This document shows, piece after piece, positions 1 through 13,864 of a stretch of 13,864 nt of DNA (positions within the stretch are counted from its first letter, which is position 1; every line of letters starts with the position of its first letter). The stretch covers positions 1 to 13,864 of the forward strand of contig JAEOTS010000155.1 of assembly GCA_016839745.1 (NCBI GenBank), given 5' to 3'. This DNA is from Promethearchaeota archaeon (GTDB taxonomy: Archaea; Asgardarchaeota; Lokiarchaeia; Sigyniarchaeales; SOKP01). Below the pieces are notes generated by a model that saw nothing but the letters and a program-made list of their open reading frames with translations, was not told the origin of the DNA and ran no database searches. The position numbers and the translations under genes are program-made.

Positions 1-2
1 AA

Positions 3-209
3 ATGGCTGCATTTGCATGGAGTCCTTTACGGGCTTTAATGAAAAAGGCTGGAGCAGAAATCGTAAGTAGAGCCGCAGTAGATAAGTTAATGGACTATTT
101 AGAAGAATATGCCAAAACTTTAACTGGTTGTGCTTTAGATATCGCTAAACACTCTGGTCGTAAGAAAGTAACTCAAGCAGATATGAAAATCGCTATTAAC
201 TTAATTTAA
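3..209 (+). CDS. Archaeal histone (HMf/HMt-type histone fold)
   Basis: 68 aa that align without gaps to the HMfB pattern: PLRALMKKAGAEIVS ... LEEYA ... AKHSGRKKVTQADM (AGA loop, H49, R52, K53, D59 equivalents). The start is at the window edge, so an upstream extension cannot be excluded. Confidence 0.95.
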   Translation: MAAFAWSPLRALMKKAGAEIVSRAAVDKLMDYLEEYAKTLTGCALDIAKHSGRKKVTQADMKIAINLI

Positions 210-242
210 AGCGATTTCCTGAAAGCATAATATATTTATAAA

Positions 243-266
243 TTTTTTTTCTTTTTTTTAGTTTTT
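243..266 (+). terminator. Oligo-T archaeal terminator of the histone gene
   Basis: T8-C-T8-AG-T5 tract starting 34 nt after the histone stop, within a convergent intergenic region. Confidence 0.65.
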
Positions 267-350
267 AATCCTACAATCCTAAATTATGATGTTGTAGTAT
301 TTCTTTATTCCAACTTATTGTTCATGATATTTAGAGGTGATTATTCTAAA

Positions 351-1166
351 TTAATCATCGATCATCCTACGATGCCCAGCAGGGCATTCACCCATAGTAC
401 AATCGTAAAAACCGTCGTCATATTCTTCTCTTGCGTTATAATGTTCCCAACAGTATATTTTATCACATTTAGGACAGTACGCATCTAATCCTTCGATAGA
501 GTGATACTTTTGCATGAAATGATAAACACCTAAAAGATCTTCATTTTTCAGAATTTCGAATAGCTCATTTGCGAGATCCCTTCTTAGCGATCTGCTGTGC
601 GTAATACCACTATATACAAGCGATTCTTGTTCATCGAACCGACCATACCCTATTTTGTATTCGACAGAAATTTTACTACAGACTGAACAAGGTAAGTGAT
701 ATTCTGAATCAGAAACTTTAATAATTCTGGCGATAGGCTCTATAATTTTCTTACTTGGGGTTAAAAAATCAAATTCAAAATAAAAAGCGTTCCAGCATTT
801 TTCAAAACTAATTTCAACTTCTTTTATATGATTAGATACTAGTTCTTCTTTATAAAATTTTAATTCGCTTAGGGATTTCGCTAATCGACTTCTTGCGGCA
901 TGTAAAAAGCTTTTAGAATTATCTAAATATTTTAAATTTCCTTTTGAAGTGCTATTTAGCATTTCCCAGGCAGAAACAGTATTATAGTAGAATTCTTTTA
1001 CATCTGAAATCCACAAGTTTTTTGTTACATCGTCCAATTTCTTACGAGAAAGTAGAAAATGTATAATGCCTTCTTTTATATCCTCGAGTTCCTGAATATA
1101 ATCTCTAATCTTCCAAATTCTTCCCGCTAATTTGTCGTTTTCTTTTAACTTTTCATCATCATTCAT
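351..1166 (-). CDS. Hypothetical protein: helical N-terminal half plus Cys/His-rich, probably Zn-binding C-terminal domain
   Basis: 271-aa ORF with motifs CSVC, CPKC-x4-CWEH and CPAGH. The N-terminal half reads as amphipathic helices. Confidence 0.8.
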   Translation of the reverse strand: MNDDEKLKENDKLAGRIWKIRDYIQELEDIKEGIIHFLLSRKKLDDVTKNLWISDVKEFYYNTVSAWEMLNSTSKGNLKYLDNSKSFLHAARSRLAKSLSELKFYKEELVSNHIKEVEISFEKCWNAFYFEFDFLTPSKKIIEPIARIIKVSDSEYHLPCSVCSKISVEYKIGYGRFDEQESLVYSGITHSRSLRRDLANELFEILKNEDLLGVYHFMQKYHSIEGLDAYCPKCDKIYCWEHYNAREEYDDGFYDCTMGECPAGHRRMIDD

Positions 1167-1201
1167 AAGTTAACTCTGGCTCCGGAATCCTTTCCAATGT
1201 C

Positions 1202-1663
1202 TTACAATTCAATTATCGTTTCCTTAGGAGCTTTTTCGGCATAAAAAAAGCGCCCAGATCCCATTACATCGACATGTCTGAAAGACATTTCAAAAAAGTG
1301 GATTTGTTGAGACTTAATCTTAAATCTTAATTTTAAAGTCTTTAATTGTTGTTTGGAATATGATTCCATTATTTCCATGATCATTTTTCCTAATTCCGAA
1401 ACTATTAATTCCTCTTCTGAAGGAAAATATTGGTATTCATCGGCACCAATTGCAACATTGCCTTTATCATACTGGCCCACATGTTCCTTTGCCTTTTTTT
1501 CGTATTTGTTGAATAGGGCTAATATATTTTTTAACTTACTTATGTGAGGGTCTCCTATTTCTCCTAGGATTTCATATACTTGGCTCGGTTTTTTTAAATA
1601 ATCTTCAATAGTATCTGGTGTGATTTTTGGTTCGTAATCAGGAAATATATTTTTTTCATCCAT
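1202..1663 (-). CDS. Hypothetical protein
   Basis: 153-aa ORF with ATG start, AGGA 5-8 nt upstream on the minus strand, and a 35-nt gap to the next co-directional gene. No family recognised. Confidence 0.75.
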   Translation of the reverse strand: MDEKNIFPDYEPKITPDTIEDYLKKPSQVYEILGEIGDPHISKLKNILALFNKYEKKAKEHVGQYDKGNVAIGADEYQYFPSEEELIVSELGKMIMEIMESYSKQQLKTLKLRFKIKSQQIHFFEMSFRHVDVMGSGRFFYAEKAPKETIIEL

Positions 1664-1703
1664 AATTCCTTAAATTTCATATCAAAAATATAAATTTCTC
1701 TTA

Positions 1704-1714
1704 TTGATATAAAG
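1704..1714 (-). promoter_or_regulatory. Putative TATA box (CTTTATATCAA) for the 1663-351 gene pair
   Basis: TTTATA-type box about 41-51 nt upstream of the ATG at 1663. The same 11-mer occurs at 6586-6596 upstream of another minus-strand gene. Confidence 0.45.
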
Positions 1715-1742
1715 ATTTAAAACCGATTGTAATGATTATTTC

Positions 1743-1764
1743 TAGAAAGTAATAATTATTAAAG
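1743..1764 (+). promoter_or_regulatory. Putative BRE/TATA promoter of the GTPase gene (probably leaderless or short leader)
   Basis: Purine-rich AGAAAG followed by TAATTATTAAAG, ending about 26 nt upstream of ATG 1790. Confidence 0.4.
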
Positions 1765-1789
1765 CATTTCACATAGTTGTTGAAATTTA

Positions 1790-2368
1790 ATGTCATTTGA
1801 GCGTGAGGATCAACCCTACTATATTTTTAAAATTTGTCTGCTTGGTCAAGGAGGAGTAGGAAAGACTTGCATTGCTAGAAGACTGTGTTTTGACACTTTT
1901 GACGCCAATACACGTTTAACAATTGGGATTGACTTCTATACATATGATCTTCCTATTCTTGTTGATGGAGATGAAACATTCATAAGACTCTCTATTTGGG
2001 ATTTTGGTGGTCAAGAACAATTCAAACAAATGTTTAGCTACTACATCCATGGAGCAAATGGAATTTTTATGGTTTTTAGCTTGTTCAACCTCAATAACAC
2101 TCTGCTTGGATTGGAATGGTGGTATGAGCACCTTTTTAAACAAAAACAAAATAAAACTCCAAAGTTATTAATCGGGTGCAAAAGCGATCTAGTAAAAAAT
2201 CGAAAGAAAGTAAATGAATTAGTCATAGAAAATTTTAGAAAAAAACATGACAATGTAGAGTTTTTTAAGTCATCTGCCAAGGAAAACCATAATGTAAGAG
2301 AAATCTTTGTAGAAATGACAAGGAATATTTTAGACACTCATAGTTTTCAATACGATAAGATTCTCTAA
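1790..2368 (+). CDS. Rab-like small GTPase (Ras superfamily; eukaryotic signature protein)
   Basis: G1 GQGGVGKT, G2/RabF1 TIGIDF, RabF2/G3 RLSIWDFGGQEQF, RabF4-like YYIHGA, G4 CKSD, G5 SSAK. No C-terminal Cys prenylation motif. Confidence 0.93.
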   Translation: MSFEREDQPYYIFKICLLGQGGVGKTCIARRLCFDTFDANTRLTIGIDFYTYDLPILVDGDETFIRLSIWDFGGQEQFKQMFSYYIHGANGIFMVFSLFNLNNTLLGLEWWYEHLFKQKQNKTPKLLIGCKSDLVKNRKKVNELVIENFRKKHDNVEFFKSSAKENHNVREIFVEMTRNILDTHSFQYDKIL

Positions 2369-2447
2369 GGATTATTTGCAATGTAAACTCATTTCTAAAG
2401 TAAGTAAAATTTATGTTATTAATTCAAAAAATAAGGGGATTAGTAAA

Positions 2448-3527
2448 ATGGTGGAAGTATTTCATGAATCAGATGGTAATATAAGTCTCTTAAAATCTAA
2501 GATAATTTCCATTATCGGATACGGTAACCAAGGGCGAGCTCAGGCTCTAAATTTACGAGATACTGGTCTTAACGTGATAATAGGCAACATTGACGATAGA
2601 TATAAGAAAATAGCCGAAGAAGACGGTTTTCCCGTTTATCCAATAATAGAAGCAGTTTTAAAATCTGATATCGTTTTTCTTTTAATTCCAGACGAAATTA
2701 TGAAACCTATATTTGAAGAAGAGATTAGCAACAATCTTAAAGTCAATTCTTCCTTAGTATTTGCTAGTGGATATAACATAGGATTTAATTTGATTTCACC
2801 CCCAAATAACATAGATGTTATGCTAATAGCCCCAAGAATGATTGGAGTAGGTGTTAGAGAGAATTTCTTAAATGGTAATAGTTTTTTTAGTTTCATCGGT
2901 ATCGAACAAAATTATACTGGAAATGCTCGAGAAATCTTACTGGCGTTAGCTAAAGGGATAGGGACTTTAAAAAAAGGTGCTATTATGCTTTCATTCAAAC
3001 AAGAAGCGGAATTAGATTTATTTAACGAACAGGGATTTGGTCCTGCCTTTGGTAGGGTGTTACTTTCTGCAATTTATACTCTTATTGAAGCGGGATATCC
3101 TCCAGAAGCAGTTCTAGTGGAAATGTACATAAGTAATGAAATGTCTTACACATACAAAAAAATGGCTGATATTGGTTTAATTAAACAAGTAGATTTTCAC
3201 TCCAAGACTAGTCAATATGGAGCGATGAGTAAGGGCATTCGCTATAGAAAACTACCTCTAAAGCCTACGATGAAAGAGATATTGAAAGAAATCCAAGATG
3301 GAGAATTCACCAAAGAATGGTCAAAAAAATTAACGAAATTAAAATTTAAAGCTATCAAGTTCTTTGCTACTAAACAAAAGATTAATAAAATAGAAAGAGA
3401 AGTTAGAAAAAACCTTAATTTGAATCTTTATGATATTTACGACGCGGATTCTCCCACAAATGAGGAATTAGCTAAATTGAAAAACATAACAGATGAATTA
3501 AAACTATTTGAGCAATATTACGAGTGA
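2448..3527 (+). CDS. ilvC: Ketol-acid reductoisomerase family protein (class I, Saccharolobus IlvC2-like subgroup)
   Basis: IIGYGNQGRAQALNLRD Rossmann motif, LLIPDE, DLFNEQ metal-binding motif, GYPPE, SQYG, GEFTKEW. The likely start is ATG 2448 (AAGGGGA 9 nt upstream) rather than TTG 2376 from the ORF track. Confidence 0.9.
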   Translation: MVEVFHESDGNISLLKSKIISIIGYGNQGRAQALNLRDTGLNVIIGNIDDRYKKIAEEDGFPVYPIIEAVLKSDIVFLLIPDEIMKPIFEEEISNNLKVNSSLVFASGYNIGFNLISPPNNIDVMLIAPRMIGVGVRENFLNGNSFFSFIGIEQNYTGNAREILLALAKGIGTLKKGAIMLSFKQEAELDLFNEQGFGPAFGRVLLSAIYTLIEAGYPPEAVLVEMYISNEMSYTYKKMADIGLIKQVDFHSKTSQYGAMSKGIRYRKLPLKPTMKEILKEIQDGEFTKEWSKKLTKLKFKAIKFFATKQKINKIEREVRKNLNLNLYDIYDADSPTNEELAKLKNITDELKLFEQYYE

Positions 3528-3531
3528 GTTA

Positions 3532-4494
3532 TTATATAAGAATTACGATTACTCCTAATATCGTAGAAATTACTCCCAAAAATCCAAATTTAGTTATTCT
3601 CTCTTTATTAAACCAATATGTTAGTGGGAGTGAAAATAAAGGGCTCGCACTAGCTAATAACGACATTACAATGGCTCCGGCTGTACGGGCAGCTTCAGTA
3701 TATAGATACGCTCCTAAGGAAGTACCAATAATAGAAGCGATAAGCAAGATTAACCAAGTTTGAGAGGGTTTTCTAAATGAGCGTAGGTATTGGGAACTAT
3801 CCGCAATTCTATTTTCTCTCCAAACGATTATTACCAAAACTAATAAAGCAAATGGAAAGCGTATTACATTGCTAATAATGGAACTGATTCCATCCGTAAT
3901 TAAAATTTGATCGATTTGGTTTGTTGCGTAATCGATAATAACAAGACCAATAGCCCATCCAAGCGATGCGATTAATGCGTATCCAATGGATTTAAAAGAG
4001 GCATGAGAAGATAATTTATGAAATTGAATATTCGAATCTAGTGAATTGATACTTTCTTTTACTGCACTTTTCTTAGTTTTTCCTATTACTATAATACCTA
4101 CTCCAATAAGGACAATTGAAAGTATTATTTTATAATCAAAAGCTCGGTTGAGAAAAATCAATGAAAGAATAAATGTAAATAGGGGAAATGTCATGGAAAT
4201 TGCTAGGGCTATAGTAGTACCAAGCTCCTTTTGTGCTTGAAAATATGCTGTATCTCCAATTACTTGTCCAAAAAGAAAGCTAAGGAATAACATTATCCAT
4301 AAAGTCCATGGCAATAAGAATATTTGTGTAAAAATGCCTAAAACAACAGCTACTAATATAAAAGTTATAGTTCCAATCCCCGTACGAAAAAAATTAATGA
4401 AGGCTGGGCTTGTGTGGCTCTCAGTTCTTCGAAAGAGGACATTTGACACTACAAAAGTTAAAACTGCTAAAACTGCGATTATTTCTCCGGTCAT
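3532..4494 (-). CDS. EamA/DMT-family transporter
   Basis: 320 aa, about 10 hydrophobic segments in two repeated halves (INFFR...GDTAYF...G...FPLFT and ISNVIR...GAYLY...G...SPLFS...KERI). ATGA overlap with the upstream gene's stop at 4491-4494. Confidence 0.9.
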   Translation of the reverse strand: MTGEIIAVLAVLTFVVSNVLFRRTESHTSPAFINFFRTGIGTITFILVAVVLGIFTQIFLLPWTLWIMLFLSFLFGQVIGDTAYFQAQKELGTTIALAISMTFPLFTFILSLIFLNRAFDYKIILSIVLIGVGIIVIGKTKKSAVKESINSLDSNIQFHKLSSHASFKSIGYALIASLGWAIGLVIIDYATNQIDQILITDGISSIISNVIRFPFALLVLVIIVWRENRIADSSQYLRSFRKPSQTWLILLIASIIGTSLGAYLYTEAARTAGAIVMSLLASASPLFSLPLTYWFNKERITKFGFLGVISTILGVIVILI

Positions 4495-5927
4495 ACAGTT
4501 AAATTCCTCTTTTTTCCATATTCGGTTAGTTTTAAAAAGGATTTAGCAGCACGTTTTATGGATGGAAACAAAGTAAATCCATCACTAATCAATTTATCGT
4601 AGAATATTTGTCGAGATTTGCTAGGATAGTCTGGTAAAATAATAACAAATGTTTTGTCTAAAGATTCAACATGTGCTTTAACACCAAGTAAGTTCTTGTA
4701 ATAGTTCTTGAACCTATCTCCTTCTAGATCACTCCAAGCATCGGTTACTATCATAACAAAGTCAATATTATCATCTATCGCTGCTATACATATTTTTAAA
4801 TAAACATCATTAGATGTTAACCAAGGTAAATCTAAAGGATTGGTTAAACTTCCGATTTTAATAGGATATATATCCTTCAATTTTTCTAACTTTTCCCCTT
4901 CAAAAAGTGGTAGGCAAAAACCTAGCTCCGTCAATACATCTGTTGCTAATATTCCAAAACCTCCAGACCATAAAATGACTAAAGCATTTTTGCGTATGGG
5001 GTATTTGACTTTTTTATTTAAACCCTTAAACCTTTGGATGTGTTTTGAGAAAAGATAAACATAATCAATTAATTCGTCTATTGAAGACGGAACATCAATT
5101 ACAGGCGTTTGGTTGAAAATGGCTTTCCAAATAACATCTTTGGTTGCCAATGAACCTGTATGTGTCAAAACTGCTGATTGTCCCCTCTTGGTTCGACCCC
5201 CTCGCATAATAAGCACCGGTTTCCTCATAGATTTTAGTACTTTTAAGAACTTCTTACCTTCATTTCGATGTAAAGCCGGTAAACCTTCGAAATATACACA
5301 CACAATTTCAGTTTCGATATCATTGTTAAGATATTCTAGTAGTTCAGAAATTTGAATATCGACGCAGTTACCAATACTAACGCCTTTCGAAAATCTTAAA
5401 TTATGTCGTCGAGAACTTAGTTTGACCATTTTCGAGTGTAAATCTCCCGATTGGAAAATTAGCGCGATATCACCGCTTTCAACAGGAAAAGAAGAATAAT
5501 AAGCTATCTTTCCTTGAGGACAATATAATCCCATACAATTTGGCCCAATACCCCTAGTACCCGGTGTTTGGTCAAGGATTTCTTTGAGTTTTCTTTCAAT
5601 TATTACGCCCTCATCGTCAAATTCTCCAGTACCAGCTGTAAAGATATGGATAAATCCAATCTTCTTTTTAGATAATATCTCGGTTAAGCTATTAATCAGA
5701 TTGTCTCTCCTAACACTTAAAATTAGAAGGTCGATTTTATCAATAGGTACATCATCAATTGTTCTATAACATTTTATTCCTAAGAATTCTTCTTCTTTTG
5801 TGGAAACTATATAGAGATTTTCTAAATTGTATCCTTGTCTAAGAAACCCTTCCACAAAAAATGCTATTTTGGGTGATATCTTATAAATTAAGACTTTTTT
5901 AGGTTTAAACAGTCGTTCAAAGGACAT
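4491..5927 (-). CDS. NDP-forming acyl-CoA synthetase alpha-like subunit (CoA-binding and succinyl-CoA-ligase-like domains)
   Basis: RLFKPK N-terminus, IGPNCMG, FQSG, VSIGN, YFEG, phospho-His motif HTGSLA, SGGFG, NPLDL. The likely start is ATG 5927 (4 nt after the upstream stop) rather than GTG 5948. Confidence 0.88.
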   Translation of the reverse strand: MSFERLFKPKKVLIYKISPKIAFFVEGFLRQGYNLENLYIVSTKEEEFLGIKCYRTIDDVPIDKIDLLILSVRRDNLINSLTEILSKKKIGFIHIFTAGTGEFDDEGVIIERKLKEILDQTPGTRGIGPNCMGLYCPQGKIAYYSSFPVESGDIALIFQSGDLHSKMVKLSSRRHNLRFSKGVSIGNCVDIQISELLEYLNNDIETEIVCVYFEGLPALHRNEGKKFLKVLKSMRKPVLIMRGGRTKRGQSAVLTHTGSLATKDVIWKAIFNQTPVIDVPSSIDELIDYVYLFSKHIQRFKGLNKKVKYPIRKNALVILWSGGFGILATDVLTELGFCLPLFEGEKLEKLKDIYPIKIGSLTNPLDLPWLTSNDVYLKICIAAIDDNIDFVMIVTDAWSDLEGDRFKNYYKNLLGVKAHVESLDKTFVIILPDYPSKSRQIFYDKLISDGFTLFPSIKRAAKSFLKLTEYGKKRNLTV

Positions 5928-5931
5928 AATT

Positions 5932-6552
5932 TCATTTCGTTTTTCCACTATTTTCCCCTAATTCGTTAGTTATTAAGTTATTACAGTTAAAACAGTATTT
6001 AGGAATTGAATCGAATTGAGTTCCGCATATCGGACATTCTATTCTATTTAGAGCTTCGATTTGTTTTAAATTATCTGTTTCTGTATTATTTCTAAAACTT
6101 TTAATGAATTTTAAAATTAATGATAACGCAATAGACTCAATAACTAAAATTAGACCTAATATAATGGTATTAATAATAAAGGTCGGGAAAAGAGCATTAA
6201 AATTCATTTCTGAATATCGCCAATAGAATACATAAAAGAAAAAGTTAGGAAAAAAAAAAGTGGTTAAATTCATAGAATAAGCTTTTTTAAAATCGTTAAA
6301 AATGAAAATGGGTATCAAAGATACAATAATCCAAGTAAGATTGATATATACAAAACCAAAACTATTGTTATACATGATAAAGCTTGCGAGAAATTGAATA
6401 ACAAATTGTTGTTCACCCGCTCTAGGGTCTGTGCTTAAATCGAATTCAATTTGAAACTCATATTTAAATATAACAACAAAACTAATTAGCATGAATATTT
6501 GAATGCAAAAAAGCACTAATTTGCTTTTAAACAAGTTTCTTTTCTTCATCAT
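5932..6552 (-). CDS. Membrane protein (about 4 TM helices) with C-terminal zinc ribbon
   Basis: Four hydrophobic stretches followed by CPICG-x9-CFNC. Confidence 0.8.
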   Translation of the reverse strand: MMKKRNLFKSKLVLFCIQIFMLISFVVIFKYEFQIEFDLSTDPRAGEQQFVIQFLASFIMYNNSFGFVYINLTWIIVSLIPIFIFNDFKKAYSMNLTTFFFPNFFFYVFYWRYSEMNFNALFPTFIINTIILGLILVIESIALSLILKFIKSFRNNTETDNLKQIEALNRIECPICGTQFDSIPKYCFNCNNLITNELGENSGKTK

Positions 6553-6738: not shown

Positions 6739-9711
6739 ATGAGTTATTCTTTTAGTCGAACTAAATTAATTGAAAAAATAAAATTCGGACTACTTAGTCC
6801 CGATGAAATTAGAAAGATGTCTGCTGCTAGAATTATAACAGCGGATACTTATGACGAAGATGGTCTACCAATCCCAAGTGGGCTTATGGATCAACGTTTA
6901 GGAACTATTGAGCCTGGTCAGAGATGTCAGACATGTGGAAATCTTGTTAGTAACTGCATGGGGCATTTTGGTCACATTGAACTCGCCCGTCCTGTTATTC
7001 ATGTTGGTTACGCCAAAAAAGTCTTAAAGGTTTTAAGAAGTATATGCCCCGAATGCTCAAGATTGATGCTAACGGAAGAAGAAATGGATAATTTTAGGGA
7101 TGAACAATTAAAACACCGAAGGATTTTCCTCGAAGGGGATGAAGATGCGACCAAAATTGTTTTTAAACAAGCAAGAAAAAGTAAAATTTGTCCATATTGC
7201 GGGGCGAAAAAGAAGAAAATTGTTATCGAAAAACCTACTACTTTTTATGAGGAAGAGGAAGCTAAAGGTTCTAGGAGAATTACTCCAATAGAGATTTTAG
7301 AGCGCCTTATAAAAATGACTGATAATGATCTAAGAATTCTTGGAGTATCTCCTGAAAATGCAAGACTTGAATGGGTTATTTTTACAGTATTGCCGATTCC
7401 ACCTGTATGTGCTAGACCATCTATTACATTAGATAGTGGAATTAGATCCGAAGATGATTTAACTCACAAATTAGTAGATGTTATCCGCATTAATCAAAGA
7501 TTAAGAGAAAATATCGACGCTGGTGCTCCTCACTTAATTGTTGAAGATTTATGGGAATTACTTCAATATCACATAACTACTTATTTTGATAACCAAGTGT
7601 CTGGAATTCCTCCAGCACGACATCGCTCTGGAAGAGCGTTGAGAACGCTAACGCAAAGATTAAAAGGGAAAGAGGGGAGGTTTAGAAGTAATTTAAGCGG
7701 GAAAAGGGTTGATTTTTCGGCGCGTTCAGTAATTTCACCAAATCCTTTTATTAGTATTAATGATGTTGGTGTGCCTATTGAAATCGCAAAAATCCTAACT
7801 ATTCCTACAAATATTAATGATTGGAATATTGAAGAGATGAAACAGCTAGTTTTAAACGGACCATTTAATCATCCTGGAGCTAATTACATTATTAGAACCG
7901 ATCGACGAAGAATAGACTTGCGTTATGTTAAAAATCGCCAAATAATATCTGAAATGCTTGCTCCTGGATATACTGTTGAACGACATTTAGCTAATGGTGA
8001 TTTAGTTTTGTTTAATCGACAACCATCCCTTCATAGAATGTCAATTATGGCTCACGAAGTTAAAATCATGGATGGTAGGACCTTCAGATTGAATTTAACG
8101 GTTTGTCCTCCTTATAACGCTGATTTCGATGGTGATGAAATGAATTTGCATGTCCCACAAAGTGAAGAAGCTCGAACTGAGGCCGAGTTACTTCTTAAAG
8201 TTCAAAATCATATATTATCTCCGAGATTTGGAGGTCCAATTCTAGGAGGAATTCAAGATTTTATTTCTTCTGTTTTTCAATTTACAAGTTTGGATTCATT
8301 ATATAATAGAAAAGACGCTTTAAAGCTATTATACTTAGGGGATGTTTTTAATTCTAAACCCAACTTTAGTTTAGATGATATAATTCCCGTAAAAACCGAT
8401 CCTGAACCCTATTATTCAGGAAAACAAATTTTTAGTACTCTTTTTCCAGATGATTTGAATATTAAGGTAAAATCAAAATTTTGTAAGAAATGCGAAGTAT
8501 GTAAGGAAGAGGGTTGTGAATATGATGCATATGTTGTCATTAAAAACGGTATATTAATAACTGGAACAATAGACGAAAACTCATTTGGAGCTATGCAATC
8601 TAATAGTATTTTACAAAGAATAATAAAAGATCATGGCAACGCACTGGGAAGACAATTTTTAGATAATTCAACAAGAATGTTATTGTATGTTATTCGGCAA
8701 AATGGAATGACAATGGGTTTAGATGAAGTTTATGTTCATGGAGAAGCTTATGATAAAATCCAGCAAATATTGAAAGACGCCGACGATGAAGCTGATAAAT
8801 TAATCAAAGCGTTTAACGAAAACGACATCACAATCTTGAGACGAGCCCCCGGACGTTCAATGCGCGAAACACTTGAATTAAGGATTCGACAAGTGCTCGC
8901 AGAAGCTCGTAAAATGGCTGAGGAAACTGCTGCGCACCATATAGGAGACGAAGCTCATTCTGTAATAATGACTAAGTCTGGAGCAAGAGGTAATATTTTA
9001 AATCTGGGACAGATGTCAGCTGTTGTTGGTCAACAGGCGATAAGAGGTGAAAGAATCAACAGAGGTTATAGTTCAAGAACACTTCCACATTTCAAAGTAA
9101 ATGATTTAACTCCTCAAGCTCGTGGATTTGTTGAGAGTTCTTATCGAAAGGGCTTAAATCCCGAGGAATTCTTTTTCCATGCCATGGGCGGAAGAGAAGG
9201 ACTCGTAGATACTGCTGTTCGTACATCTACTAGTGGATACATGCAGAGACGGTTAGTAAACGCTTTACAAGATATGATAATAGAAAATGATGGAACCGTC
9301 AGAAATAGCGATAAAAATATCATTCAATTTCGCTATGGCGATGATGGTATAGACCCAATGCATACAGATCATTCTGATGCCGTAAATCTTGAAGTGTTAC
9401 TACTTAAGGCTAAAGCACTTGATTTAAATGAAATTCGGGAAGAAATTAAAAAAACTCCTAAACCAAAACCCACAGCAAAAAAACCCGTAGCAAAAAAACC
9501 CGAAGTAAAAAAACCCGAAGTAAAAAAACCTGCAACAAAAAAAACAGTAAAAAAAGACCCTACAAAAAAACCTAAACAAGAAGAAAGAGATCAAGCTCTA
9601 AGTGAAGAAGACTTGAGAGAATTATACAACAAAGAGACCGGAAAGAACGCGGAATGGAGAGGAAAACTCACAAAAGGGTATCTTGAATGGAAAGAAGAAA
9701 AATTGGGATGA
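6739..9711 (+). CDS. rpoA1: DNA-directed RNA polymerase subunit A' (Rpo1N) with C-terminal extension
   Basis: CQTC...CMGHFGHIELA Zn site, RLKGKEGRFRSNLSGKRVDFSARSVISP, FNRQPSLHRMS, catalytic NADFDGD (8116-8136), bridge helix GREGLVDTAVRTSTSGYMQRRL, YGDDGIDP. Confidence 0.99.
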   Translation: MSYSFSRTKLIEKIKFGLLSPDEIRKMSAARIITADTYDEDGLPIPSGLMDQRLGTIEPGQRCQTCGNLVSNCMGHFGHIELARPVIHVGYAKKVLKVLRSICPECSRLMLTEEEMDNFRDEQLKHRRIFLEGDEDATKIVFKQARKSKICPYCGAKKKKIVIEKPTTFYEEEEAKGSRRITPIEILERLIKMTDNDLRILGVSPENARLEWVIFTVLPIPPVCARPSITLDSGIRSEDDLTHKLVDVIRINQRLRENIDAGAPHLIVEDLWELLQYHITTYFDNQVSGIPPARHRSGRALRTLTQRLKGKEGRFRSNLSGKRVDFSARSVISPNPFISINDVGVPIEIAKILTIPTNINDWNIEEMKQLVLNGPFNHPGANYIIRTDRRRIDLRYVKNRQIISEMLAPGYTVERHLANGDLVLFNRQPSLHRMSIMAHEVKIMDGRTFRLNLTVCPPYNADFDGDEMNLHVPQSEEARTEAELLLKVQNHILSPRFGGPILGGIQDFISSVFQFTSLDSLYNRKDALKLLYLGDVFNSKPNFSLDDIIPVKTDPEPYYSGKQIFSTLFPDDLNIKVKSKFCKKCEVCKEEGCEYDAYVVIKNGILITGTIDENSFGAMQSNSILQRIIKDHGNALGRQFLDNSTRMLLYVIRQNGMTMGLDEVYVHGEAYDKIQQILKDADDEADKLIKAFNENDITILRRAPGRSMRETLELRIRQVLAEARKMAEETAAHHIGDEAHSVIMTKSGARGNILNLGQMSAVVGQQAIRGERINRGYSSRTLPHFKVNDLTPQARGFVESSYRKGLNPEEFFFHAMGGREGLVDTAVRTSTSGYMQRRLVNALQDMIIENDGTVRNSDKNIIQFRYGDDGIDPMHTDHSDAVNLEVLLLKAKALDLNEIREEIKKTPKPKPTAKKPVAKKPEVKKPEVKKPATKKTVKKDPTKKPKQEERDQALSEEDLRELYNKETGKNAEWRGKLTKGYLEWKEEKLG
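9463..9537 (+). repeat. Five tandem 15-bp units encoding (K/P)KPxx pentapeptides
   Basis: ccaaaacccacagca / aaaaaacccgtagca / aaaaaacccgaagta / aaaaaacccgaagta / aaaaaacctgcaaca. Degenerate units continue to about 9576. Confidence 0.9.
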
Positions 9712-9740: not shown

Positions 9741-10937
9741 ATGGGAAAAATAACTCAAACAATATTGGAAAGAAACTTAAAGGAATTAGAAGAAGATGGT
9801 ATTCCTGAAGATCTTATCAAGAAAATAAGAAATCGCGTTAAAGATGAAGAATTAGAAGAAGAACAATTAGAATACCTCTTAAATAAGATTTATGTTAATT
9901 ATAATAATGCCGTTGTTGAAACGAACGAACCTGTAGGGACCGTTGCCGCTCAAAGTATTGGAGAGCCCGGAACTCAAATGACTCTGAGAACATTTCACTA
10001 TGCGGGAGTTGAAGAATTCTCCGTAACTCAAGGTCTTCCTAGACTCATAGAGATTGTCGATGCTCGAAGGTTCCCTAGCACACCTCAACAAACGATATAT
10101 TTAGAAGAACCTTACAATCAGAGTGAAGAAAAAGCAATTGAAGTTCATAAAAGAATTGAACAAATTCGTATTGAGCAAATTACCCACGATGTAGACTTGG
10201 ATTTTGTTAATTGGAACATCATAATCAATTTAATTCCCGATATTTGCGAAAAAAAGGGAATCGATATCGAAACAATTCCTGAAATTTTAAAAAGATACAA
10301 GAAAAAGGGAACGATCAAACGAGAAGGAAACTCTATAATTATTGATCCTCAAATTGAAGATCTTCAAAACCTTCAGAAGTTAAGAGAAAAGATCCTTAAA
10401 AAGGTTGTAAAAGGCGTACGAGGGATTAAAAGAGGTTTATTAACCCCAACTGATAATAAAAAGGAATGGGTTATTAAGACTGAAGGAACAAATATGCATG
10501 GAGTTGTTCAAATTGAAGGAGTTGATACTACTCGAACGGTTTCAAACCATATACACGAAATTGAAAAACTTTACGGTATCGAAGCTGCGAGAAATATGAT
10601 AATAAAGGAGTCCCAAAAAGTGTTAGAACAACAAGGATTAGATGTTGATCAAAGACACTTAATAATCTTGTCTGATTTGATGTGCGTGGAAGGCTCAATT
10701 CAATCAATCGGTAGACATGGAATATCAGGATCAAAGTCAAGTGTATTTGCCAGAGCAGCTTTTGAAGTAACTGTAAATCAATTATTAGACGCTGGTTTGT
10801 ATGGCGAGGAAGAGCGCTTGTTAGGAATTCCCGAGAATGTTATAATTGGGCAAGTAGTACCAATGGGGACAGGTCGTGTGAAAATTCAGTTCGATTTAGA
10901 TGCTAACCTCAAAATATTAAACCAATTAAAAAAATAA
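9741..10937 (+). CDS. rpoA2: DNA-directed RNA polymerase subunit A'' (Rpo1C)
   Basis: [28 protein letters not shown] (trigger loop), [40 protein letters not shown]...GTG. Confidence 0.99.
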
Positions 10938-11154: not shown

Positions 11155-11529
11155 ATGGCAAGGAAAAGTAAAAAGATAAGCGAATCAATCGATTTATCTC
11201 GAAAAAAAGTAAAGGAATTCGATGTTGACATTAATATTAAGGTTGCCTATAAAACAGGTAAAATGATATATGGTAAAACACAAGTCCTAAGACAAATTAG
11301 ACAAGACCCGTTTAAGATGGTTATTATCGCTAATAACTGCCCGGACGAATTAGAAACCCAATTGAAGTATTATAACTCTCTTATTAACAACAACATATTT
11401 ATACACAGATACAAGGGTTCCTCGTGGGAATTAGGATTAGCATTGGGCAAGCCATATATGATCTCTGTCATTGGAATAAATGATTTTGGAGATTCTGACT
11501 TAATGACTTTAAAAACTAAAAATAATTAA
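11155..11529 (+). CDS. rpl30e: Ribosomal protein eL30 (L30e)
   Basis: KTGKMIYG, VIIANNCP, YKGSSWELGLALGKPY, DFGDSDL; canonical position after rpoA2. Confidence 0.97.
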   Translation: MARKSKKISESIDLSRKKVKEFDVDINIKVAYKTGKMIYGKTQVLRQIRQDPFKMVIIANNCPDELETQLKYYNSLINNNIFIHRYKGSSWELGLALGKPYMISVIGINDFGDSDLMTLKTKNN

Positions 11530-11536
11530 TAACTAA

Positions 11537-12025
11537 GTGAAACCCAAATTGATGTTACGAAAAAATATCAGACTTGATAGGCAATCGATGGAACTAATGT
11601 CGCTTTTCAATAATATTTCTGGTGCGATTATAAAAGATTGCTTTATTTTTCAATCTCCAGAAAATAATTCTGATATAATTATATTCTTAGTGAAAAAAGA
11701 AGACGTAGGAAAGGCTATCGGTAAAGCAGGTGAACATGTAAAGGATCTTATGAATAAACTTCAAAAGAAAATAGATGTAATCCCTTGGTCTGAAAACCTT
11801 GGACAATTCATCCAGTTTATCTTAAACACCACAAAGAATTCGATTCAACTTCAAAACATAGAAATCAAAGAAAGTAGAAACGAAAAGAAAACGGTCATTA
11901 TTTCCGTAAGACCTCAAGATCGTGGAAAAGCTATTGGTAAAGAGGGTTCCATGATAAGAAAGATAAAAGAACTTGTTTTACGTCATTTTGAGGTTGATAA
12001 TGTTATAATCAACACTAAAAATTAA
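11537..12025 (+). CDS. nusA: Archaeal NusA (two KH domains)
   Basis: LFNNISGAIIKDC and two GKAIGKxG KH motifs; canonical position. The start is either GTG 11537 or ATG 11552. Confidence 0.96.
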   Translation: MKPKLMLRKNIRLDRQSMELMSLFNNISGAIIKDCFIFQSPENNSDIIIFLVKKEDVGKAIGKAGEHVKDLMNKLQKKIDVIPWSENLGQFIQFILNTTKNSIQLQNIEIKESRNEKKTVIISVRPQDRGKAIGKEGSMIRKIKELVLRHFEVDNVIINTKN

Positions 12026-12123
12026 GAATCTAATTTTCTAAATTCAAAAATTTTAAGTTCTAAGGAAGATAATAAGGTATATCTCAATAAGAGATATTCA
12101 AAAAATAAAAAAATTGAATTTTC

Positions 12124-12558
12124 ATGGCCAAACCTAAAGGACTCTACGCTGCAAGACAACTAAGAAATAACAGAAAGAAGCTTAGATGGAGCAAAACCAA
12201 ATATAAAAGAAAGAAGCTTAAATTAAAACAAAAAGTAGATCCAATGGAAGGTGCTCCTCAAGCTTTAGGGATCGTACTTCAAAAAGTAGGAAGAGAAAGT
12301 AAACAACCTAACTCTGCTATTCGAAAATGTGTCAGGGTTCAGTTAAAAAAGAATGGAAAAAGTATAACTGCTTTTCTTCCGGGAGACGGTGCTCTTAACT
12401 TCATTGAAGAACACGATAGAGTACTTGTGGAAGGGATCGGGGGAGCCAAAGGTCGTGCGGTAGGAGATCTTCCTGGTGTGCGATGGCGTGTAGTAATGGT
12501 AAACGGTGTAAGTTTACAAGCACTAATTGCAGGCAAGAAAGAGAAGCCAATGAGGTAG
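12124..12558 (+). CDS. rps12: Ribosomal protein uS12
   Basis: [38 protein letters not shown]. Confidence 0.99.
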
Positions 12559-12568
12559 GTGTTGTAAT

Positions 12569-13186
12569 ATGAGTAAAGCAAAGAAAGATATTAAACTTTT
12601 TAATAAATGGTCATATCAAGATATTGAAGTTAAGGATTGGACCATAGAAAACTATATAAACTTAAAACCGGTTATAATTCCTCATACTGCAGGAAGGCAT
12701 GAGCACAAACGATTTTGGAAAACTTCTAAAATATCCATCATCGAGCGTTTTGTAAATAGATTACTAGCACCTGGATTTATTGGTAGTAAAATCAAAGGAC
12801 ATAAAAGCTCATATAGTTCAGGAAAGAAAAGTAAACTTTTAAGAAATATAGAGAATGCTTTTACGCTGCTAGAGTTAAATACAGGAGAGAATCCCATTCA
12901 AGTTTTAATAGACGCAATTTGTAATTCCGCGCCTAGAGAAGAAGTAACAAAAATTGCGATGGGGGGCATCAGTTACAGCTCTGCTGTAGACGTATCACCC
13001 CAACGTCGAATAGATTTAGCGATTAAGTATTTAGTTCAAGCTATTGGTTCAAGTTCTCACTCAGGCGAAAGAGCGTTTGCCGAGAACATTTCCAGAGAGC
13101 TAGCATTAGCAGCTCAAGACAACCTTGAATCTAAGGCTGTGAAAAGAAAAGACGAGATTGAAAGGATCGCTGTATCTGCACGTTAA
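12569..13186 (+). CDS. rps7: Ribosomal protein uS7
   Basis: LFNKWS, PHTAGRH, NPIQVL, APREE, VDVSPQRRID, terminal ERIAVSAR. An AGGTG SD overlaps the rps12 stop. Confidence 0.99.
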   Translation: MSKAKKDIKLFNKWSYQDIEVKDWTIENYINLKPVIIPHTAGRHEHKRFWKTSKISIIERFVNRLLAPGFIGSKIKGHKSSYSSGKKSKLLRNIENAFTLLELNTGENPIQVLIDAICNSAPREEVTKIAMGGISYSSAVDVSPQRRIDLAIKYLVQAIGSSSHSGERAFAENISRELALAAQDNLESKAVKRKDEIERIAVSAR

Positions 13187-13484: not shown

Positions 13485-13864
13485 TTGAGTTCCGACAAAA
13501 ATCAAGATGTTTTAGAGAAACAACTTAAAACATTAGGTCAAAAAATAAGGATCGATATTTTAAAGAAACTAAACCTAAGTAGTAATCCCTTACCTTATTC
13601 ATCGCTACAAAAGGAAGTATTAGGAAATAATCCAAATGCTATTAATTTTTCATTTCATTTAAAAGCGTTAAAAAATAGCGTTTTAATAGAATCTTCAGAG
13701 GATGGATATATCCTAAGTACCATAGGGAAGCAAATTTTAAAAAATATTGTGTCAATCGAGCAAATCCTCAACGAAAAGAATAAAACAATAATGATCAGGA
13801 CTTCTAAATATTCGAAAGAGCCATTTGATACAACTAAAATTGAAGATTATTTGGTTAAAGAGGG
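13485..13864 (+). CDS. 5' part of a winged-HTH (ArsR-like) plus ATP-cone protein, probably NrdD (class III ribonucleotide reductase)-related; runs off the window
   Basis: Not in the ORF track. Hand translation from TTG 13485 (in-frame TGA at 13464) is open to the window end: MSSDKNQDVLEKQLKTLGQKIRIDILKKL...PLPYSSLQKEV...NFSFHLKALKNSVLIESSEDGYILSTIGKQIL...IMIRTSKYSKEPFDTTKIEDYLVKE. Confidence 0.75.
   Translation, partial: MSSDKNQDVLEKQLKTLGQKIRIDILKKLNLSSNPLPYSSLQKEVLGNNPNAINFSFHLKALKNSVLIESSEDGYILSTIGKQILKNIVSIEQILNEKNKTIMIRTSKYSKEPFDTTKIEDYLVKE

Follow-up and report, generated by a model that had tools for sequence, protein, structure and literature searches.

What does an RNA polymerase gain from a tail on its catalytic A' subunit? 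Cellular RNA polymerases seldom carry lineage-specific additions on their catalytic subunits, and such additions usually mark a new coupling of the enzyme to its surroundings. The question is raised here by the rpoA' gene on a stretch of 13,864 nucleotides (positions 1 to 13,864 of contig JAEOTS010000155.1, assembly GCA_016839745.1; hereafter the window) from a Promethearchaeota archaeon of the class Lokiarchaeia. Its product, RpoA' (Rpo1N), continues past the conserved polymerase core into a variable Lys/Pro-rich spacer that ends in a small conserved domain, termed here the mini-domain. The whole arrangement is universal in the two Asgard families that were sampled for it, and the mini-domain recurs on many otherwise unrelated cellular and viral proteins. 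We tentatively propose that the tail is a flexibly tethered module that binds nucleic acid or the nucleoid.

A conserved mini-domain behind a variable spacer

The rpoA' frame carries Rpb1 domains 1–5, in order, on residues 9–870 (Pfam PF04997, PF00623, PF04983, PF05000 and PF04998; E 1e-27 to 1e-95) and its residues 801–889 align with solved Rpo1N chains, which together identify it as an archaeal Rpo1N. A first-pass annotation of the window, made from the DNA alone, had noted that the frame runs beyond this core to residue 990, as indeed it does with the last Pfam domain ending at 870, and had put the appendage at about 96 residues. The extension is real; its length needs correction. Solved archaeal Rpo1N chains are 880–910 aa long, in agreement with the typical size that the annotation had quoted, and they end 11–17 residues beyond the part aligned to residues 801–889. 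Residues 895–903 (DLNEIREEI) are therefore the normal Rpo1N end and the true extra sequence amounts to about 87 aa (residues 904–990), not 96. The parts of the gene and its downstream partner are as follows.

6739..9711, + strand: rpoA' (Rpo1N) coding sequence, 990 aa, stop codon included (open reading frame (ORF) list and translation)
6739..9447, + strand: conserved RpoA' polymerase core, residues 1–903, up to and including the last conserved helix and the usual C-terminal end
9448..9576, + strand: Lys/Pro-rich low-complexity spacer, residues 904–946, 43 aa with 19 K and 9 P
9465..9543, + strand: 15-nt tandem repeat coding for KKPxx units (Tandem Repeats Finder: 5.3 copies, 87% match)
9577..9597, + strand: short acidic junction QEERDQA, residues 947–953 (translation; pLDDT ~63 vs 93–94 for the domain)
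9598..9708, + strand: terminal mini-domain, residues 954–990, 37 aa, consensus L-x-EE-x-L-x3-Y-x2-ETGKNAIWRGK-x-TK-x-Y-x2-WK
9741..10937, + strand: rpoA'' (Rpo1C), the next gene, 398 aa (translation; Pfam Rpb1 domain 5)

The counts given earlier for the linker were exact, and the 37-aa non-repetitive segment recognised at its end corresponds to the mini-domain. Among the C-termini of RpoA' homologues the ETGKNAxWRGKxTKGYxxWK end is strongly conserved behind a spacer of variable Lys/Pro/Ala/Thr/Glu composition, just the pattern that the annotation had proposed to look for in relatives. Across 47 copies of the mini-domain one A, one G and one W are invariant and T, G, K and T are nearly so; these positions (T, G, K, A, G, T, W) seem to have a structural role. 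Pairwise dN/dS of the mini-domain is 0.186, compared with 0.064 for the neighbouring core (measured across relatives over 61 residues, beginning with the SGYMQRRL motif at residue ~832 and ending with the last conserved helix at ~892), although dS exceeds 1 and the values are rough. The mini-domain is thus under purifying selection, another expectation of the annotation that was borne out, whilst the spacer is free to vary.

The variation of the spacer is considerable. In 36 distinct single-copy orthologues it spans 26–56 aa (counting from residue ~903 up to the domain), with 37% K, 12% P and 11.5% E and a net charge of 0 to +24. The commonest RpoA' lengths among the closest homologues (975, 980, 985, 990, 995, 1000, 1005, 1015, 1020 and 1025 aa) differ in 5-aa steps, as expected since slippage of the 15-nt repeat unit would give them. 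In genus g10 the tail grows to ~300 aa and holds three copies of the terminal domain between acidic or Ser/Thr-rich spacers. The linker of the window reaches 20–24 bits on the histone H1-like/HC2 family (Pfam PF07382) against a cut-off of 40, a match that therefore reflects its composition. What is kept of the spacer is only a long, charged, proline-rich connector, and the domain is the conserved and selected element.

An AlphaFold2 run on the 47-row mini-domain alignment gave a model with a helix (10–21), a short beta-hairpin (25–30) and a second helix (33–43), with a mean pLDDT of 85.5 and 93–94 within the domain. Averaged over the 47 copies, the first helix has a charge of -3.0 and the hairpin plus second helix of +4.5; in the model the hairpin and second helix form a basic face and the first helix is acidic. 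Most RpoA' proteins have a single mini-domain, one homologue has two, and the overall range is 1–3. At one locus (L056:2793-3075; G156:C4) a second copy lies in a 64-aa ORF that overlaps the rpoA' end in another frame, with one TAG inside the match, and may represent a duplication, a frameshift or a sequencing error.

As to where the tail leaves the enzyme, A' residues 801–878 align with yeast Rpb1 803–880, and A'' residues 33–120 align with Rpb1 1032–1119 and with solved Rpo1C chains. The tail therefore exits where eukaryotic Rpb1 has its foot domain, and the earlier placement of the A'/A'' split near the foot was correct.

Distribution across Asgard genomes

We scanned 301 Asgard genomes for the mini-domain with a single-sequence query and then with a 47-sequence profile, alongside a companion sample of ~270 genomes. 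Two sister families, f1 and f2, had the mini-domain in every genome sampled (68/68 and 7/7), and all 39 distinct RpoA' C-termini examined from them bear the tail; outside these families the Asgard sample gave no significant match, only marginal ones (E 0.004–0.009). The tail is thus not an Asgard-wide feature but is confined to these two sister families, in both of which it is universal. A search with RpoA' residues 850–990 matched 305 proteins. RpoA' ORFs in f1 and f2 are mostly ~975–1060 or ~1190–1217 aa long, and a scan with the core showed some shorter frames that still carry the domain; in other Asgard families they measure 877–918 aa, or 1300–1420 aa where A' and A'' are fused. In family f31, of the same order, RpoA' ends without a tail, and in family f32, of the same class, it has a different short extension.

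One f32 locus (L087; G305:C10) combines a different, 45-aa helical extension on A' with an A'' in which the conserved core is preceded by a Lys-rich stretch and two CxxC...CxxC zinc-ribbon-like motifs. Another locus (L093; G240:C111) has a fusion of A' and A'' in a single open frame of 2317 aa, with a long insertion of intein-like look after the GEPGTQM motif.

A pattern scan with a 12-row alignment, covering one genome for each of 185,579 species, returned 111 relatives, the best 80 of which are all from Asgard metagenome-assembled genomes. A wider Asgard range was suggested by NCBI labels (Thor-, Hod-, Hermod- and Odinarchaeota and one Nanopelagicaceae; labelled loci include L113, L138, L139 and L141), and was rejected when the loci checked fell in the window's own family or genus according to GTDB. 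L138 and L141 are contigs of genomes so placed, and the submitter labels are therefore treated as unreliable and not as evidence for a wider range.

The same RpoA' architecture occurs in >100 independent assemblies, and the tail is found even in genomes assembled as a single contig (3.3, 4.3, 4.4 and 6.0 Mb), which excludes a local misassembly or a missed stop codon and bears out the annotation's view of the tail as a genuine tethered module.

The mini-domain is a promiscuous module

The annotation had regarded the terminal domain as specific to the polymerase; in fact it sits on many unrelated proteins, and its function must therefore be inferred differently. An exhaustive profile search of 1.84 billion representative proteins gave 500 clusters with E<=1e-3, of which 75 have E<=1e-10. 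The 36-aa mini-domain is usually found at one end of the protein, in 1–8 copies and often behind a long charged spacer. Genomes of f1 and f2 hold 1–25 copies each. That of the window has six more besides the one in RpoA', one of them a weaker match in a 417-aa ORF. The five clear ones are placed at the C-terminus of a 261-aa protein predicted to have four transmembrane segments, in a stand-alone 44-aa protein, at the N-termini of two RHH-HisKA-receiver proteins and at the N-terminus of an ABC ATPase. In two genomes (G213 and G094) all three mini-domain matches are within RpoA' itself, so that the module needs no other carrier, and the RNA polymerase is the constant one.

The stand-alone 44-aa gene lies directly 3' of a Rad51/RadB-like gene on the same strand (L003:1495-2471; G000:C82); the pairing is absent in another genome, G171, and was dropped as a conserved context.

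According to Pfam, carriers include the ribosomal protein eL13, to which a Lys/Pro/Ala spacer and 1–2 mini-domain copies are attached; large NosD/beta-helix surface proteins, a beta-propeller protein and Ras/Roc-type GTPases; a reverse transcriptase with a Cap4 nuclease and LRR, and a PD-(D/E)XK nuclease; and SWIM, HTH, HD-CE and RHH proteins and zinc ribbons. In family f2 both eL13 and RpoA' have the mini-domain. In the surface proteins a transmembrane helix is followed by a Lys/Pro spacer much like that of RpoA' and then by the mini-domain at the extreme end, an order that places the mini-domain in the cytoplasm. Four Lys-rich proteins (P0125, P0129, P0131 and P0160) consist of back-to-back, half-overlapping units, up to eight of them, with KKPAAKKK-type spacers and no other recognisable domain.

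Two viral contigs in IMG/VR encode a ~90-aa protein that ends in the mini-domain and lies directly upstream of a family-B DNA polymerase. These loci (L104:3800-6271 and L105:3845-8101) are of low GC content (32%), one contig being 99 kb long and one of the polymerases having a LAGLIDADG insertion; the contigs are probably from Lokiarchaeial viruses. The mini-domain is a mobile, lineage-restricted module, and a hitherto unnamed family of at least 500 clusters.

Comparison with known domains and polymerase appendages

Literature searches gave no description of the RpoA' tail or of the mini-domain. No Pfam family reaches its cut-off on the mini-domain, a sequence-profile search of the PDB returned only chance 12-residue matches, and Foldseek against the PDB, including a re-inspection of the matches, gave no relative. 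The ESM Atlas yielded unnamed 58-aa clusters (at 0.80–0.82) that were uninformative, and a wide structural search of 48,161 chains gave a best Z of 3.5.

Only one domain exceeded the controls, namely the hybrid-binding domain of RNase H1 (PF01693, with the fold of the ribosomal L9 N-domain). An hhalign comparison with ten bacterial and phage hybrid-binding domains aligned the last 22 columns of the mini-domain to positions 1–22 with a probability of 67% and a score of 22.5, which is 6.6 SD above 300 column-shuffled control profiles (mean 8.9, SD 2.0, maximum 16.1). Like the mini-domain, the hybrid-binding domain is of ~40 aa and is joined to its enzyme by a long flexible linker, and its first 22 positions match the hairpin and following helix of the mini-domain (A-I-W-x-G ... 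G-Y-x-x-W). It differs in that its second half, with the Lys-Lys/Phe contacts, is missing in the mini-domain, which has an N-terminal helix instead, and in that its second strand corresponds to a predicted helix. Against PF01693 itself the best copy, one fused to eL13, scored 20.5 bits with a cut-off of 21; the copy in the window gave no match and 4/47 copies matched weakly (E>=0.015). Only profile positions 1–22 of the full beta-beta-alpha-beta-alpha domain align, a circularly permuted version was tried and brought no gain in score, and a search of 268 Asgard genomes yielded no genuine PF01693 domain. Since the second half has no counterpart, permutation adds nothing and the secondary structure disagrees at one strand, the match suggests a local resemblance to a duplex-binding motif and not membership of the family.

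The C-terminal DNA-binding domain of Lsr2 is a helix, basic loop and helix of ~40 aa, comparable to what is predicted for the mini-domain, and one such structure (6qkp) ranked second of the 48,161 chains (Z 3.2, rmsd 3.2 Å over 42 residues), with a Z tied with those of unrelated folds. As a homologue it was rejected: hhalign against ten phage Lsr2 domains, RGR loop included, gave a probability of <=3% and a score of 12, which is noise.

Among polymerase appendages, Rpo13 of the Sulfolobales is lineage-specific, lies in the jaw/shelf area and consists of a small core of helices with a Lys-rich tail believed to contact DNA (summarised e.g. in PMC13257274). Like the RpoA' tail it is an archaeal lineage-specific addition to RNA polymerase; unlike the tail it is a separate subunit, not a fusion, and belongs to a different phylum. 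It showed no sequence similarity to the mini-domain in the profile search of PDB sequences, which included Rpo13-containing polymerases.

The bacterial alpha-CTD offers a closer parallel in logic, being a small, independently folded domain on a flexible linker to the polymerase core that reaches DNA or factors around the enzyme. It is attached to alpha, the equivalent of Rpo3/Rpb3, has a fold of ~85 aa that is apparently a different one, and is probably not homologous to the mini-domain. Its binding of DNA and activators has been demonstrated, whereas that of the mini-domain is only proposed, and it is not known as a promiscuous module. It appeared neither among the PDB sequence matches nor in the top 50 structural rows and is used here as a functional analogy only.

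A tethered nucleic-acid binder as the favoured reading

The RpoA' tail may be a flexibly tethered module that binds nucleic acid or the nucleoid, closer in its logic to the bacterial alpha-CTD than to the C-terminal domain (CTD) of Pol II; we put the probability of this reading at roughly 0.45. It is favoured because of the basic face, the resemblance to a duplex binder, the many nucleic-acid carriers and the viral copies in a replication module. The carriers that lend it support are eL13, the PD-(D/E)XK nuclease, the reverse transcriptase with Cap4, the SWIM, HTH and RHH proteins, and the Lys-rich proteins of up to eight units. Further support comes from the constancy of the tail and the mini-domain in the two families, from the genomes in which RpoA' is the sole carrier, and from purifying selection on the domain beside a freely varying spacer.

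RpoA' of this lineage has gained a reach-out appendage at the split of the largest subunit, which is the position of the foot in eukaryotic Rpb1. This appendage comprises an unstructured, charged, Pro-rich spacer, evolving fast by slippage of the 15-nt repeat, and an autonomous 36-aa domain, the basic face of which might bind duplex nucleic acid. The duplex could be DNA or chromatin close to the polymerase, or one that contains RNA. On its spacer the domain would be able to explore a radius of several nanometres about the shelf/foot side of the enzyme. In Pol II-type enzymes this foot/shelf region is situated beneath the downstream DNA channel, and it is in this area that Rpo13 of the Sulfolobales puts its basic tail on DNA. 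The outcome would be a polymerase held on, or brought to, the nucleoid, by a logic like that of the alpha-CTD or of RNase H1 with its tethered hybrid-binding domain, and other carriers would be brought to the same target. The existence, conservation, distribution and modularity of the appendage are shown here, as are the predicted fold and the charge pattern; the ligand and the effect on transcription are what we infer.

Several observations weigh against this reading. The mini-domain as a whole is near neutral (mean net charge +1.4), and about a quarter of the copies have C, K, Q, G or H in place of the hairpin Arg. The spacers of genus g10 are acidic. The resemblance to the hybrid-binding domain spans half of that domain, without the half that bears the Lys-Lys/Phe contacts, and AlphaFold has TKGY..W helical where the hybrid-binding domain has a strand. 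Structure searches reached only Z<=3.5. Lastly, ABC ATPases, Ras-type GTPases, the beta-propeller protein and surface-protein tails are carriers that have no obvious nucleic-acid role.

An accessory domain tethered to RNA polymerase is known; what is new here is the mini-domain family, its position on A' and its spread over cellular and viral proteins. The family provides a handle on many ‘hypothetical’ proteins and on the interplay between Asgard hosts and their viruses, and in RpoA' it sits at the position where eukaryotic Rpb1 grew a foot domain.

Alternative explanations

The carriers without a nucleic-acid role are more readily accommodated if the mini-domain is a protein–protein docking or address module that recognises one abundant cellular protein or structure, for instance a filament of the cytoskeleton, a scaffold close to the membrane or a site on the polymerase itself, all carriers being recruited to this hub. 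This, the main rival, is possible, though we hold it to be somewhat doubtful. The mini-domain occupies the very N- or C-terminal end of proteins with unrelated functions, in many of them behind a long flexible spacer. This position suits docking, as do its near-neutral charge, the structural rather than basic-binding-site look of its most conserved residues, and its occurrence on ABC ATPases, GTPases and surface-protein tails, in which it would face the cytoplasm like a receptor tail; free or small viral versions could compete for the same site. However, since RpoA' is the sole carrier in some genomes any partner must be a general component, and the one sequence similarity above controls is to a nucleic-acid binder.

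A broader proposal, which we consider unlikely, is that the mini-domain is a lineage-wide address tag for one target, either the nucleoid/chromatin or a cytoskeletal scaffold, that would physically link RNA polymerase, the large ribosomal subunit via eL13, surface proteins by their cytoplasmic tails, signalling proteins and small GTPases; with copies of their own, Lokiarchaeial viruses would enter this site or compete for it. If true, this would amount to a simple protein-localisation system that organises transcription, translation and the membrane in cultured relatives of eukaryotes.

Self-association of mini-domains, by which multivalent carriers would draw polymerase, ribosomes and membrane proteins together in assemblies or condensates, would be in keeping with the variable copy number of up to 8, with spacers that are long, charged and disordered, as is typical of multivalent scaffolds, and with the joint occurrence on eL13 and RpoA' in f2. 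Most RpoA' proteins, however, have a single copy, and no exposed hydrophobic interface is suggested by the sequence; this explanation is very unlikely.

A platform resembling the Pol II CTD, on which Lys/Thr/Pro repeats would be modified and read by factors with the terminal domain secondary, is highly improbable. The annotation had likened the tail functionally to the CTD. Both are low-complexity extensions of the largest subunit, here a repetitive one, and Thr, Ser and Lys are plentiful in many RpoA' linkers. The CTD, however, has conserved heptads with defined phosphorylation sites and stands at the C-terminus of the A''-equivalent part, whereas the RpoA' tail has no conserved repeat, terminates in a folded domain and is joined to the end of A' (Rpb1 ~895). 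In the 36 orthologues no conserved repeat unit with modifiable residues was found, and no linker residue is conserved either, length and charge varying as described and the g10 linker being acidic or Ser/Thr-rich. The conserved element is the terminal domain, and the same linker-plus-domain cassette occurs on membrane proteins and eL13, so that the likeness to the CTD is weak.

An artefact or neutral accretion, be it a missed stop, a frameshift, a chimeric assembly or a functionless extension, might have been suspected from the proneness of low-complexity repeats to assembly error, and is effectively refuted by the identical architecture in the independent assemblies, single-contig genomes among them, and by purifying selection on a domain with a confidently predicted fold.

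Gene context in the window

The rpoA' and rpoA'' genes of the window form the split pair, with the usual L7Ae/L30e-family gene, NusA-type KH gene and S12 downstream of rpoA'' (11155-13186). The region upstream of rpoA' (window 1-6552) holds a Ras-family GTPase, a ketol-acid reductoisomerase, an EamA transporter and a CoA-ligase-like gene, some of which lie on the opposite strand; rpoB is not upstream of rpoA' in the window. An ORF at 13485-13864 runs off the window end. The genome is histone-bearing, as the annotation had it, with four histone-fold genes, one of which lies inside the window at 30-197.

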